Below, piece after piece: positions 55,508 to 61,980 of a DNA stretch of 64,000 nucleotides (positions are counted from its first letter, which is position 1; each line of letters begins with the position of its first letter). A program made the position numbers and the translations under genes. The stretch lies in NCBI GenBank assembly GCA_963797095.1, contig CAWCNY010000002.1:512001-576000 (forward strand), written 5' to 3'. The notes beneath the pieces are model-generated. The model was not told the origin of the DNA and made no database searches. It worked only from the letters and a program-made list of their open reading frames with translations. Source of the stretch: an uncultured Chloroflexia bacterium (GTDB lineage: Bacteria; Chloroflexota; Chloroflexia; QHBQ01; JADMIH01).

Positions 55508-58294
55508 ATGGCTGACTTCACTACCGGTACAGTTACCTTCCTGTTCACCGACATAGAAGGGAGCACCCTCCTCTGGGAGCAACACCCTGAGGCAGCCAAT
55601 GCTGCCCTCGTGCGCCACGATGCCATCATAGAGAATCTTGTGGTCGAGCACCTGGGCATAGTAGTGCGCCCGCGTGGCGAAGGCGACAGCAGGTTCGCCG
55701 TTTTCCCCCGCGCCACCGACGCCGTCACCGCCGCCGCCTCCATCCAGAAAGCGCTCTACGCCGAACCGTGGCCCACGCCCCGCCCCCTCCGGGTGCGCAT
55801 GGCCCTCCATACCGGCGAGGCCGAGCTGCGCGACGGCGACTATTACGGTAGTGCCGTCAACCGCTGCGCCCGCCTTCGCTCCGCCGCTCATGGCGGGCAA
55901 ACCCTCATTTCTCAGGCCACCTTCAACCTGGTCAGCGATGCCCTCGCCCCAACCCTCAGTTTCCTCGACCTGGGCGAGCACCGCCTCAAAGACCTGGAAC
56001 GTCCTGAGCATATCTTCCAACTGGTGATCCCCGACCTCCCGGCTGATTTCCCTCCCCTCAACACACTCGACAGGCGACCTCACAACCTGCCCATACAGCG
56101 CACCCCCATAATCGGGCGCGAGAAAGAGGTCGAAGCCATCAGCGAGATACTCCTGCGCGACCGCACCGGGCTGCTCACCCTCACCGGCCCCGGTGGCACC
56201 GGCAAGACTCGCCTCGGCCTGCAAGTATCCGCCGAGCTTGCCGATCAATTCGACGCCGGGGCCTTCATGGTCGCCCTGGCCCCCATCGACGATCCTTCCC
56301 TTGTGGTTTCTACTATAGCCCGCACCCTGGAGATCCCTGACACGGGCGGACGCACTCAACTCGATGCCCTCAAAGATTACCTGCGCCCCAAACACTTCCT
56401 CCTCTTCCTCGACAACTTCGAGCAAGTCCTTCCCGCAGGCCCGGTCGTAACTGAGCTACTCGCTGCCGCCCCCCGTCTGAAAGTGCTGGTGACCAGCCGC
56501 GAGGCGTTGCACCTCTACGGAGAGTACGAATATCCGGTCTCCCCCCTTACTGTCCCCGACCTTGAAGATACCCATCTCCCACCTCAGCAGCTCAGCCAGT
56601 ACGAAGCGGTGCGTCTCTTCATCGAGCGCGCCAAAGCCATCAAGCCCGATTTCAGCATCAACGATGACAACGCACCTGCCGTGGCCGAGATTTGCTTCCG
56701 GCTCGATGGCCTCCCCCTCGCCATCGAGCTTGCTGCCGCCCGCATCCGCCTTCTCCCACCCCAGGCCATGCTCCCCCGCCTGCAAGGTAAATTGCAGGCG
56801 CGTCTGCAACTTCTCACAGGTGGGGCAAGAGACCTCCCCGCTCGCCAGCAGACCTTGCGTGGCGCTATCGAGTGGAGCTACGACCTCCTCACCGCCGACG
56901 AACAGAAGCTCTTCAACATGCTCTCCATCTTCATGGGTGGATGCACCCTCGAAGCAGCCGAGGCGGTCTGCGATGTCACCCACCTTGCGGTCGATCTTCT
57001 CAATGGGCTCGAGTCCCTCGTCTCCAAGAGCCTTGTGCGACAGTCGGAAACCAGCAGTGGCGAGCCTCGTTTCTGGATGCTCGAAACCATCCGCGAATAT
57101 GGCCTTGAGCAGCTTGCGGCGAGCGGTGAGCTAGATAACCTGCGCCGTAGGCATGCCGACTATTTTGTGGCGCTTGCCGAAGAGGGCGAGAAGGGCATTG
57201 TCGGCCCTCAGATCGTAGAGTGGTTGGATCGTCTTGAAGCCGAACACGACAACTTCCAATCCGTGCTCGAATGGGCAGTCGGACGCGAAGATGGCGATTG
57301 GGGGTTACGCCTGATCGGCTCTCTCTGGCACTTCTGGCAGGCCCACGGTTACATGAGAGAGGTGATCGGGTGGGTGGAAGAAAGCATCAACGCTGCCGGC
57401 ACACCCACCAACTCCCTTGTCTGGGTCAAGGTTTTGATGGCCCATCGTTTCATCAAGTGGAACCAGGGCGATATCTACGCTACCGATAATACCATGGAGC
57501 GTGCAGTAGCAATCGCACGCAGGATCGGGGCACGCGAGTATGAGGCCTGGGGACTCTCAGTGCTTCATACGCTACGCATACTCAGCAACGATCACATATC
57601 TGATCGTGCTGCTATACTCTCCACCTTACAAAAAGTGCTGGTGTTGGATCGCCAGCTTGGAAACACCTGGTATGGTGCCTTTTCCATAATGATCCTTGGG
57701 CTCGCTCACAATGGGCTTGGCGATTTCGATGAGGGGCGCGCCCTTTGCGAAGAGGCACTCATCCTGTACCGCAAACTCGGCGACCTGTGGGGTGTTTCTC
57801 AAGCTGTAAACATACTGGGCGACCTGGCCCGTATACGAGGCGATTACGCTGAGGCGCAGCGCCTCTACGAAGAGAGCCTGGCTCTCTACCGTAAATTGGG
57901 TAACAAAGCCGATGTGCCTGCCTCCCTTCATAACCTGGCCTATGTTGCCCTCCACCAAAATGACCTTGAACGCGCTACACTGTTGTTCAAGGAAAGCATA
58001 GACTTACAGCTTGATAGAGGCAACCGGCTCGGCGTGATCGAGTGTCTTTTTGGCTTCGCAGGTACCGCTCTGGCTGCGCAACAGATCGAGCGGGCAACCC
58101 GCCTTTTTGTAGCCGCGACCAGGTTGCAGGATGAGCAAAGGGCCCAGGTTTGGCCCGCCGAACGCGCCGAGCATGAGCGCAGCCTGGCTCAGTTGCATGC
58201 CCTCATGGACGATGCTGCCTGGCAGGCTGCCTGGGCAAAAGGCCAGTCATTGACCCTGGATCAGGCCGTCGATTACGCTCTACAGGAGAATTAG
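55508..58294 (+). CDS. Class III adenylate/guanylate cyclase - STAND NTPase - TPR protein
   Basis: TFLFTDIEGST, GDS, RMALHTGE; GPGGTGKT, LDNFE, LDGLPLAIELAAAR; C-terminal TPRs. Confidence 0.95.
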   Translation: MADFTTGTVTFLFTDIEGSTLLWEQHPEAANAALVRHDAIIENLVVEHLGIVVRPRGEGDSRFAVFPRATDAVTAAASIQKALYAEPWPTPRPLRVRMALHTGEAELRDGDYYGSAVNRCARLRSAAHGGQTLISQATFNLVSDALAPTLSFLDLGEHRLKDLERPEHIFQLVIPDLPADFPPLNTLDRRPHNLPIQRTPIIGREKEVEAISEILLRDRTGLLTLTGPGGTGKTRLGLQVSAELADQFDAGAFMVALAPIDDPSLVVSTIARTLEIPDTGGRTQLDALKDYLRPKHFLLFLDNFEQVLPAGPVVTELLAAAPRLKVLVTSREALHLYGEYEYPVSPLTVPDLEDTHLPPQQLSQYEAVRLFIERAKAIKPDFSINDDNAPAVAEICFRLDGLPLAIELAAARIRLLPPQAMLPRLQGKLQARLQLLTGGARDLPARQQTLRGAIEWSYDLLTADEQKLFNMLSIFMGGCTLEAAEAVCDVTHLAVDLLNGLESLVSKSLVRQSETSSGEPRFWMLETIREYGLEQLAASGELDNLRRRHADYFVALAEEGEKGIVGPQIVEWLDRLEAEHDNFQSVLEWAVGREDGDWGLRLIGSLWHFWQAHGYMREVIGWVEESINAAGTPTNSLVWVKVLMAHRFIKWNQGDIYATDNTMERAVAIARRIGAREYEAWGLSVLHTLRILSNDHISDRAAILSTLQKVLVLDRQLGNTWYGAFSIMILGLAHNGLGDFDEGRALCEEALILYRKLGDLWGVSQAVNILGDLARIRGDYAEAQRLYEESLALYRKLGNKADVPASLHNLAYVALHQNDLERATLLFKESIDLQLDRGNRLGVIECLFGFAGTALAAQQIERATRLFVAATRLQDEQRAQVWPAERAEHERSLAQLHALMDDAAWQAAWAKGQSLTLDQAVDYALQEN

Positions 58295-58456
58295 CGCGAC
58301 ATCGCAGCACACACAGGCAAGTTTGGCTAGCTATCCGTTATATCCGGAGTTTATGGTTTGTGGGTCATTAACCAAGAAACCCGAATCGCTCCTTCGCCGT
58401 ATATAGTCCCGAACTTGGCGAATCGACATGCTACAACTACTGAGAAAGGCTATTCT

Positions 58457-58855
58457 ATGAGCATATTCAACCCGGCAGAAATCGACTATCTGCAAAGCCT
58501 CCGTATAGGACGGGTCGCCACCGTCAGCCCCAACGGTGATCCTCATGTGGTGCCCCTCCGCTTCAAGTACAACCCGCAAGAGGATGCAATCGACCTGCTT
58601 GGTAGCGACCTCAGTAGTAGCAAGAAATACCGTGATGCCCAGGCCACGGGGCGCATCGCCTTCGTTGTAGATGATATCGCCGACGGCAAACCCCGCGGCA
58701 TCGAGATTCGCGGTAGGGCCGAAATCCACCCAACCGGCGGCGAGTCCCTGATGAAGAACGTTGGCACCGCTTTTATCCGCCTGATACCCACCCGCATCGC
58801 TGTGTGGGGCATAAACTCAAACTCCTACCACCCGGTCAGCCGCAAAGTTGGTTAG
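58457..58855 (+). CDS. PPOX-class (F420-dependent-like) oxidoreductase
   Basis: YL...RIGRVATV...G.PHVVP, S.KYR, AFVVDD, RGIEIRGRAE. Confidence 0.85.
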   Translation: MSIFNPAEIDYLQSLRIGRVATVSPNGDPHVVPLRFKYNPQEDAIDLLGSDLSSSKKYRDAQATGRIAFVVDDIADGKPRGIEIRGRAEIHPTGGESLMKNVGTAFIRLIPTRIAVWGINSNSYHPVSRKVG

Positions 58856-60222: not shown

Positions 60223-60266
60223 CCATTAATAGCCAGATCAGCGGTTGGATCACTGGAGGTGTAGCT

Positions 60267-60962
60267 TTGACCGGCATATCTGATGATACTACCCTGGATC
60301 GCCAGGTTCGGACTCACATTTACGACATACTCTTATCAGGTGGCAAGATGCCTTTGGCTGCCGATGTGGCCCGGCATCTCGCCATAGATTTAGACCGTCT
60401 GCACTCCTCTTTCCGGCGCTTGAAAGATGCCCACATCCTTGTGCTCCAGGAAGGCGATCAAGAAATACTGATGGCTAATCCCTTCTCGGCTGTGCCGACA
60501 CCCTTCCTGGTGGAATCCGGCTCTAGCTCGTGGTGGGGCAACTGCATCTGGGATTCTCTTGGTATCGCCGCTATGATCAAGCGGGATGCCCGCATCACCA
60601 CCGGCTGTGGCGATTGCAACGATTCTATGGCCCTTCTCGTTCAGGATGGCTCGTTGCGACTGGAGAATGGCGACGGCATAATACACTTCTCCGTCCCTGC
60701 CCGGCGTTGGTGGGACAATATCAAGTTCACCTGAAAAACAATGTTGCTCTTCAGGTCGGAAGAGCACATCGACCGGTGGTGCGCGGCCTGGGGTCAGCCT
60801 CGCGGCGGCACACTCAGCCTCGATCAGGTCTGGCAACTCGCCGTTGCCTGGTATGGTCAGGATCGCAGGGACGAGGATTGGCGTCGGAAGACCCTCGAAG
60901 AAGCTACAGCCGTCTTCGAAGACATCGGCATGACGGGACCGTTCTGGCAACTATCGGGCTAG
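60267..60962 (+). CDS. MerB-like organomercurial lyase family protein, probable selenoprotein (UGA at 60732-60734 read as Sec)
   Basis: wHTH, ANPFSAVPTP, NCIWD (Cys-x2-Asp), CGDC; ORFs 60267-60734 and 60741-60962 are in one frame across TGA (WDNIKFT-U-KTMLLFRSEEH); GGAGG RBS before TTG. Confidence 0.8.
60741..60769 (+). promoter_or_regulatory. Candidate bacterial SECIS element
   Basis: TGCTCTTC-AGGTCG-GAAGAGCA hairpin; loop starts 18 nt after the UGA with G at loop position 2. Confidence 0.7.
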
Positions 60963-60983: not shown

Positions 60984-61980
60984 ATGAGATATTTCATCAC
61001 AGGGGCCACCGGCTTCATTGGTGGCACTATCGCTCGGCAACTTATAGAGGCGGGCCACCAGGTAATAGCCCTCGTCCGTACCCCTTCCAAATCGACTGAG
61101 CTAGCCAAACTGGGAGCCGAACTCCACCCAGGCGACATCACGGACAAGGAAAGCATGCGCGCACCCATGAATGGTGCAGATGGTGTTTTCCATATTGCCG
61201 CCTGGTACAAGATCGGCCTGCGCGATAGCAGCATGGCCGAACACCTGAACGTGGACGGTACGCGCAACGTCCTTGAGTTGATGCGCGACCTGAATATACC
61301 CAAAGGCGTGTACACAAGCACCCTCGCGGTCTTCGGCGATACGCACGGCAAGATGGCGGATGAAGTCATATTATGACGGCGGCCCCTGGCTCAGCGAATA
61401 CGACCGTACAAAATGGATGGCGCATTACAAGGTGGCCTTGCCAATGATCAATGATGGCCTGCCCCTTGTCATTGTGCAGCCCGGTCTGGTCTATGGTCCG
61501 GGCGATACAAGCTCATTCCACGATATGTGGGTTCAATATCTGAAGCGTCGCCTCCCGGCTTCGCCCAAACGTGTAACTTACTGCCCGGCTTACGTGGAAG
61601 ATATAGCCCACGGCCATATCCTGGCGATGGAGCGCGGCAAGGTAGGCGAGAGCTATATCATAGCCGGGCCATGCCACACCCTGATCGATATATTGGCCCG
61701 CGCCCAGCGGATCACAGGAGTGCCCGCGCCGCGTCTTCATCCATCGCCCGGTTCCATGCGTACATTGGCGGGTGTTATGGGTGCGGTAGGTAAAATAGCT
61801 CCTTTACCACCCAATTTGAGCGCTGAGTATCTACGCATTAGTTCGGGTGTTACGTATCTTGGCTCTAATGAGAAAGCGCGGCGAGAACTGGGTTACAACC
61901 CGCGCTCGCTGGACGAAGGCCTTCCCGAAACCCTTGAATACGAGATGAGCCTCCTTGGCATGAAACCCCACCCAAAATGA
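60984..61980 (+). CDS. NAD-dependent epimerase/dehydratase (extended SDR), split by a +1 frameshift at about 61363
   Basis: TGATGFIG, YxxxK (YDRTK); removing one A of GATGAAGTCA gives continuous ADESYYDGG. Confidence 0.85.

Follow-up and report, generated by a model that had tools for sequence, protein, structure and literature searches.

Positions 60267 to 60962 of the window very probably hold one intact gene, and its sequence predicts a selenoprotein of the MerB fold (alkylmercury lyase, PF03243). Here, the window is the whole stretch of 64,000 nucleotides that was analysed. The gene contains an in-frame TGA, which would be translated as selenocysteine (Sec). A sequence-only reading of this DNA had proposed a selenoprotein, and the results support it. 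The column of the TGA holds Sec or Cys in the homologues. A hairpin is linked to the TGA, the genome encodes the Sec machinery, and the MerB match extends across the TGA. From these comparisons, we regard the gene with high confidence as a genuine selenocysteine-coding gene. Its features are listed in Table 1.

Table 1. Features of the MerB-family gene, with positions counted from the first letter of the window.
Feature	Position	Strand	Description
Whole MerB-family gene	60267..60962	+	231 codons: TTG start, predicted Sec codon 156, TAG stop
Shine-Dalgarno-like GGAGG	60255..60259	+	Seen in the sequence, 7 nt 5' of the TTG; putative role
Cys93-Ile-Trp-Asp96 (CIWD) codons	60543..60554	+	TGC 60543-60545 (Cys93), GAT 60552-60554 (Asp96); counterpart of MerB Cys96...Asp99
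In-frame TGA, predicted Sec residue 156	60732..60734	+	Counterpart of MerB Cys159
SECIS-like hairpin	60741..60769	+	Fold, covariation, codon skew; missing from the Cys forms examined
True terminator TAG	60960..60962	+	From the ORF listing and the read-through translation

Gene structure and the MerB catalytic column

Standard ORF calling yields two pieces on the plus strand, as the sequence-only reading had said of gene callers. The upstream ORF (60267-60734) starts with TTG and encodes 155 amino acids, ending in KFT before the TGA. The downstream ORF (60741-60962) encodes 73 amino acids. It begins with MLLFRSEEH at the ATG and closes with the TAG. Both ORFs lie in the same frame, and the spacer consists of TGA-AAA-ACA alone. 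This arrangement was also described correctly, and reading through it gives a protein of 231 residues. The genome search found the gene in a single copy in its own genome.

The Pfam MerB profile spans the TGA. The read-through protein scores 111 bits against a gathering threshold of 27, and covers positions 1-126 of the 126 in the profile. Taken separately, the halves score 64.9 bits (profile 1-81) and 25.2 bits (profile 88-126). The AlphaFold2 model of the read-through protein, built on the family alignment, has a mean pLDDT of 95.6 and a pTM of 0.91. Foldseek against the PDB gave 11 matches with E <= 0.001, every one of them MerB or MerB2. The next match has an E value of 0.14. Identity to the solved MerB and MerB2 structures is 15-19%.

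We searched the PDB with a family profile of 44 aligned members. The nearest solved relative is MerB2 (5c17), matched at E 5.8e-22. The TGA column stands there opposite the Cys in GTCKQIHYFSS. Canonical MerB (1s6l, 3f0o/p and others) is matched at E 3.5e-8. More precisely, the C..D and Sec columns of the profile align to the active-site Cys/Asp/Cys of 5c17 and of 1s6l/3f0p. Haft & Gwadz (bioRxiv, 10.1101/2022.07.06.499078) give the active-site residues of MerB as Cys96, Asp99 and Cys159. C93, D96 and U156 of the window protein correspond to this triad, with Sec standing for Cys159. These three residues are invariant in 44/44 aligned proteins, and P72, W148, W171, W195, G221 and W227 are likewise invariant. 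So both catalytic assignments made earlier stood up: the CIWD motif supplies the Cys/Asp pair, and the UGA lies at the Cys159-equivalent site, aligned with the second catalytic Cys of MerB2 and of canonical MerB.

Conservation of the TGA codon and of the hairpin

Among 40 related genomes, all 17 non-fragment matches (40-78% identity) carry exactly one TGA. An 18th match, a fragment of 35 residues, is outside this count. A scan of species-representative genomes returned 94 relatives. The best 80 were kept, and the TGA is present in 80/80. The window locus and both scans together give 98 loci, some of their genomes having been reached by two routes. The TGA occurs in 98/98 of them, all at one column, and these counts overstate the statistical weight because of the kinship among the genomes. 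The loci comprise 89 distinct proteins and 84 distinct stretches of 51 nt around the TGA. Two loci from unpublished genomes (L030 and L031, in G021 and G022) are within the 98 and were left out of the alignment and its derivatives.

The motif around the TGA in the 98 loci is WW..I.[FY][TAN]-U-x-T-[MI]-L-L-F-R-x-E-E-H. According to the record titles, the holders belong to seven phyla: Chloroflexota, Acidobacteriota, Actinomycetota, Gemmatimonadota, Myxococcota, Calditrichia and Eisenbacteria. The frame 3' of the TGA is open to the end of homology in 89/89 genes, against 143 and 146 stops in the other two frames of these stretches. Entropy at codon positions 1-3 is 1.04, 0.90 and 1.46 downstream, and 1.12, 0.97 and 1.47 upstream. 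It means that a coding pattern is present on both sides.

The database search returned 1650 proteins at E <= 1e-5. Among the best 120, which were listed, 115 cover 67% or less of the query and thus end at the TGA. They are named 'hypothetical protein' or '(truncated) alkylmercury/organomercurial lyase'. The other five cover at least 90%. At the column, Cys stands in four of these (P0043, P0068, P0084 and P0117) and Trp in P0023. P0023, a protein of 216 residues, reads ..FSWNTMLLFRSEEH.. at this place, and its C-terminus is divergent too. Either its codon is truly TGG, or the depositor's gene caller applied another code and turned a TGA into Trp.

We also made an even draw of 400 genomes from the phylum. 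It gave 38 matches outside the own genome, of which 36 were read. Sec is at the column in 25 loci (L121-127, L129, L130, L141-147 and L156-164), and Cys in 11 (L128 and L131-L140). The remainder consists of a fragment in G400 that stops short of the column and of one match in the unpublished genome G311. In two of the Cys forms, L139 and L140, the single TGA is the terminator only. The homologues were thus found to hold Sec (TGA) or Cys at the column, which is the check that the sequence-only reading had proposed.

A divergent MerB-like subfamily appeared in the same draw. Its members L141 (G346:C176) and L142 (G395:C23) have TGA at both the Cys96- and the Cys159-equivalent positions. The contexts are ..QUGFE/QUGLE.. 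at the first site and ..RUSGMHLFRSEEH / RUAQMNLFRSEEH at the second. A third member, L164 (G282:C73), combines Cys at the first of these sites with TGA at the other.

The hairpin had been described as an 8-bp stem with the loop AGGTCG, the loop starting 18 nt past the TGA. All of this is present. The upper stem TGCTCTTC (60745-60752) pairs with GAAGAGCA (60759-60766), and the loop occupies 60753-60758. The spacing from the TGA to the loop is exactly 18 nt (60735-60752). Below a bulged T60744, three extra pairs (60741-43 with 60767-69) prolong the stem. The bSECISearch criteria are a hairpin just downstream of the UGA and an apical loop with G. The window gene has its hairpin just 3' of the UGA, and a G in the apical loop. 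On the other hand, the Rfam scan of 60600-60900 at E <= 10 gave no match to a SECIS family. Its sole hits were at chance level: Atu_C4 (minus strand, 20 bits against 80) and Prion_pknot.

The 35-nt hairpin folds at -13.2 kcal/mol, compared with -5.6 +/- 2.1 for shuffles (z -3.62), and 1/200 shuffles is as good. The folding energy of the 76-nt context is ordinary (z -0.48). So, folding energy alone is insufficient for the case, and it is conservation that carries it. We analysed the pairing in the 84 distinct sequences with a 12-pair structure, which makes 1008 cells. In total, 88.1% of the cells are paired. Sliding the 3' partners by 1-3 columns lowers this share to 37-60%. Neither the pairing score nor the covariation score was reached in any of 500 shuffles. 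Five pairs vary on both sides and are compensatory, for example CUGUUC/GAACAG and CUCCUC/GAGGAG. The CUGUUC/GAACAG variant costs a Glu-to-Gln change. The loop is closed by C-G in 61 rows and by A-U in 5, and the loop G at alignment column 26 is invariant (84/84 rows). The structure is not equally firm throughout. RNAalifold unaided keeps just a 5-bp core, and the stem pair at columns 18/37 is formed in just 30/84 rows. The copy in the window is among the better-paired ones of the 84.

The MLLFRSEEH peptide encoded by the hairpin is itself conserved, so the constraints on protein and RNA are partly confounded. Synonymous sites and Cys forms served as controls for this. The codon skew was measured in 89 genes, by comparing the hairpin with the rest of those genes. 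The skew is strong. Arg +7, for example, is CGG in 70, CGT in 10, AGG in 8 and CGC in 0 of 88 genes, whereas CGC makes 45% elsewhere. Likewise, Phe +6 is TTC in 88/88 (73% elsewhere), Ser +8 is TCG in 66/72 (28%), Glu +9 is GAA in 76/89 (40%), and Leu +5 is CTC in 69/76 (35%).

The second control compares nt +4 to +48 in Sec and Cys forms. The fold energy is -13.7 +/- 3.3 kcal/mol in 101 distinct Sec forms and -8.2 +/- 3.1 in 9 Cys forms, of which 8 come from a single divergent family that carries an extra residue; the only close controls are L128 and L131. The stem-loop motif with G occurs in 92/101 Sec forms and in 0/9 Cys forms. L131, L132, L141 and L142 are outside these energy and motif counts. 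Within a single genus, L127 (Sec) and L128 (Cys) both encode TMLLFRS, and the hairpin is in L127 only. The codons of L128 are CTG TTC CGC TCT GAC, and they form no hairpin. Because one genus holds both forms, this MerB-like family offers a clean natural experiment on the evolution of a SECIS inside a coding sequence. The claim of a SECIS hairpin is borne out to this extent: it is conserved across the family and tied to the TGA form.

Selenocysteine machinery and the reading of the TGA

The own genome spans 6.0 Mb in 8 contigs, is 93% complete, and comes from an organism known from this assembly alone. Among the sequencing runs listed, none is an RNA run that contains the stretch, and two soil-metagenome DNA runs contain small shares (0.12 and 0.11). 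A search for the Sec machinery had been suggested together with the selenoprotein reading. It found selA (567 bits), selB (323 bits, plus a C-terminal piece), selD (325 bits) and the tRNA-Sec (selC; 69 bits, anticodon TCA), all above the curated cut-offs.

The selD gene itself (G000:C2:243079-243930, L010) has one in-frame TGA, in CAGUAGK. A hairpin follows it, with the loop CUGGU at +20 to +24. A gene for a formate-dehydrogenase-like molybdoenzyme (G000:C3:1031074-1033992, L167) has a TGA in ENQARIUHS. The position of its hairpin is ambiguous, so it was left out as a SECIS comparison. With them, the genome has two more candidates for selenoproteins.

In the phylum draw, selA is present in 308/401 genomes overall. 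It was detected in 21/23 genomes with a verified Sec form, and in 1/10 genomes with a Cys form. No selA was detected in two Sec-form genomes, G367 and G395 (93% and 96% complete), whose Sec-form genes keep the hairpin. It may have been missed in assembly or binning, or the genes of the Sec pathway may lie elsewhere.

These data suggest how the gene would be decoded. The ribosome would read the UGA as selenocysteine. SelB, with Sec-tRNA(Sec), would bind the hairpin that starts 7 nt past the UGA and deliver Sec there. The putative SelB target is the apical (A/C)GGUC(G/U) loop, 18 nt downstream of the UGA.

A hairpin could also act without SelB, by stimulating near-cognate decoding of the UGA as, for instance, Trp or Cys and not Sec. 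The Trp at this column in P0023 agrees with such a read-through. However, the column is that of the family's metal-binding Cys, which Trp could not replace. The distribution of selA, which goes with the Sec form and is mostly missing with the Cys forms, also speaks against it. Moreover, the invariant loop G and the exclusion of CGC from 88/88 Arg codons suit a sequence-specific binder better than a roadblock. We consider this read-through very unlikely.

The gene could instead be truly split. The UGA would then terminate, and a second polypeptide would start at the ATG 60741, giving a two-chain MerB-like fold without the second catalytic residue. The ATG lies two codons past the TGA, it encodes Met in 76/89 genes, and the 155-residue piece is what is annotated in most of the listed database proteins. 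Nevertheless, the codon is ATC or ATT (Ile) in the other 13/89 genes, and is no start there. The ATG also belongs to the lower stem of the hairpin. Besides, the split would remove precisely the residue that is Cys in uninterrupted homologues, and it leaves the Sec machinery and the TGA-linked hairpin unexplained. The probability of a split gene is therefore very small.

A nonsense pseudogene, that is, a MerB-like gene killed by a TGA mutation or an assembly error, would also be called as two pieces. The neighbouring epimerase gene is frameshifted in the same assembly, which means that broken genes or errors do occur in it. Against this, the same TGA stands at the same column in all the loci at 40-78% identity, the open frame and the coding pattern persist downstream in 89/89 genes, and the catalytic residues are invariant. 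We give it hardly any weight. A genome-wide reassignment of TGA to an amino acid, favoured only by the frame that such a code would leave open, is just as improbable, since TGA closes the neighbouring P450 gene on the upstream side, it is the real terminator in 46/89 family genes, and the tRNA found with anticodon TCA is the tRNA-Sec. Decoding as selenocysteine is the reading that we keep in what follows.

Neighbourhood, proposed chemistry and known relatives

The window neighbours of the gene encode an F420-type PPOX-class protein, a cytochrome P450, a frameshifted HpnA-like epimerase and a small membrane protein. Further neighbours are a zinc-ribbon protein and Opp-type permeases. Across 81 loci, there is no conserved neighbourhood, and the largest neighbour cluster, an ABC ATPase, is present in 7/81. 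With nothing conserved across the loci, we rejected the neighbourhood as a clue to function. No mer genes (merA, merR, merT/P) lie near the window gene. The search of the genome for MerA gave nothing above the cut-off (best 355 bits against 454), and the sub-threshold matches are flavoprotein disulfide reductases.

Some neighbours deserve a description of their own. The HpnA-like NAD-dependent epimerase (60984-61980, plus strand) lies directly downstream. It is broken into two ORFs that overlap and differ in frame. The first (60984-61376) corresponds to profile positions 2-128 and the second (61360-61980) to positions 139-319, of 327. The apparent frameshift near 61360-61376 is either real or an assembly error. 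On the upstream side, 55508-58294 (plus strand; L120:5509-8295) encodes a protein of 928 residues, with an adenylate/guanylate cyclase domain, an NB-ARC/AAA ATPase and TPR repeats. It is a STAND-type signalling protein. The gene for the F420-dependent PPOX-class oxidoreductase (58358-58855, plus strand) matches TIGR04023 with 100.5 bits (cut-off 85.6). It overlaps by about 50 nt with the P450 gene (58804-60222, plus strand) as called from a GTG start. The true start of the P450 may be further downstream than this GTG.

By analogy with MerB, the selenoprotein is plausibly an organometal lyase. We tentatively suggest that it might bind an organometal, with methylmercury or another organomercurial as the obvious candidate. 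Cys93, Asp96 and Sec156 would occupy the places of MerB Cys96, Asp99 and Cys159. Cys93 and Sec156, as chalcogen ligands, would hold the metal. Asp96 would protonate the leaving carbon, and the metal-carbon bond would be cleaved as in MerB. With Sec in place of Cys, a lower pKa and a tighter binding of the metal would be expected. Hg-Se bonds are very strong, and product release without MerA would thus be a problem. Also, the lack of mer genes, of conserved neighbours and of a MerA above the cut-off makes mercury a default guess, and the substrate may be other than mercury.

A bolder proposal is that the Sec-containing clade is a high-affinity organometal lyase independent of mer operons. It could even be the enzyme with which ordinary soil bacteria (Chloroflexota, Acidobacteriota, Actinomycetota and Gemmatimonadota) demethylate methylmercury. 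We regard this as rather unlikely. If it were true, selenocysteine would let the clade capture trace organomercurials, or organometals of tin or lead, without MerA. In any case, the sequences predict an enzyme of the MerB fold that carries Se at the metal site, has no link to mer operons and is common among soil bacteria. The family is a testable candidate for the turnover of organometals, possibly methylmercury, outside classical mercury resistance. With a curated model that covers the Sec site, many annotations would be put right, and the bacterial selenoproteome known from soil phyla would grow.

The SECIS of E. coli fdhF is a hairpin right after the UGA, within the coding sequence, with a G-rich GGU loop about 20 nt downstream. 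The window hairpin is alike. It lies directly 3' of the UGA, and its GGU apical loop is about 20 nt away. The GGU loop of the own-genome selD, at +20 to +24, has a comparable placement. Unlike the fdhF type, the stem sequence in the window is specific to the family and is unmatched by Rfam. SelB is the predicted binder of the hairpin.

A MerB-like family with Sec is already known. It is SaoL, the 'selenocysteine-assisted organometallic lyase' of the model NF040728 in NCBIfam, as its preprint presents it (10.1101/2022.07.06.499078). According to the preprint, SaoL is characterised by a CU dipeptide and is the marker of an SAO locus of nine genes, which occurs in anaerobes. SaoL was the only MerB-like selenoprotein that our literature search found. 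The search took in this preprint and the reviews PMC9312934 and PMC13188914, whose supplements may list further families. The search found no printed description of the window family.

SaoL shares with the window protein the MerB fold PF03243 and a UGA-encoded Sec at the Cys159-equivalent position. SaoL and the window family also have in common the Cys/Asp at the Cys96/Asp99 positions, and database entries that end at the UGA. They differ in the residue that precedes Sec. It is C in SaoL and T, A or N in the window family (98 loci), with TU in the window protein itself. The holders differ too: the preprint places SaoL in anaerobes, whereas the window family occurs, by record titles, in Chloroflexota, Acidobacteriota, Actinomycetota, Gemmatimonadota and others. 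With NF040728, whose cut-off is 140 bits, the window protein reaches 36.4. All 44 family members match this model weakly (best E 1.2e-15). None of the 13 neighbour proteins scanned against NCBIfam matched a Sao or Mer model. With 36 bits against 140, TU and not CU, and no SAO locus, the identity with SaoL was rejected. The sequence-only reading was thus right that a Sec-containing MerB-like family has been reported, namely SaoL, but the window gene is not a member of it.

Canonical MerB (plasmid R831b; 1S6L, 3F0O, 3F0P) and MerB2 (5C17) have the same fold and the same active-site C..D ... C as the window protein. Compared with canonical MerB, the window protein has Sec for the second Cys and sits outside a mer operon. 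The second Cys of the CC pair of MerB is missing from it. With the NCBIfam models for the organomercurial lyase MerB (EC 4.99.1.2), the window protein stays below the cut-offs (NF033555, 17 bits against 200; NF009710, 26.2 against 193). NF033555 is matched weakly by 43/44 members (best E 4.8e-15), and NF009710 by 44/44 (1.5e-16). Since there is no conserved neighbourhood and no MerA above the cut-off, canonical mer-operon MerB was rejected for the window gene. The family is a distinct clade of the MerB fold, neither SaoL nor mer-operon MerB.
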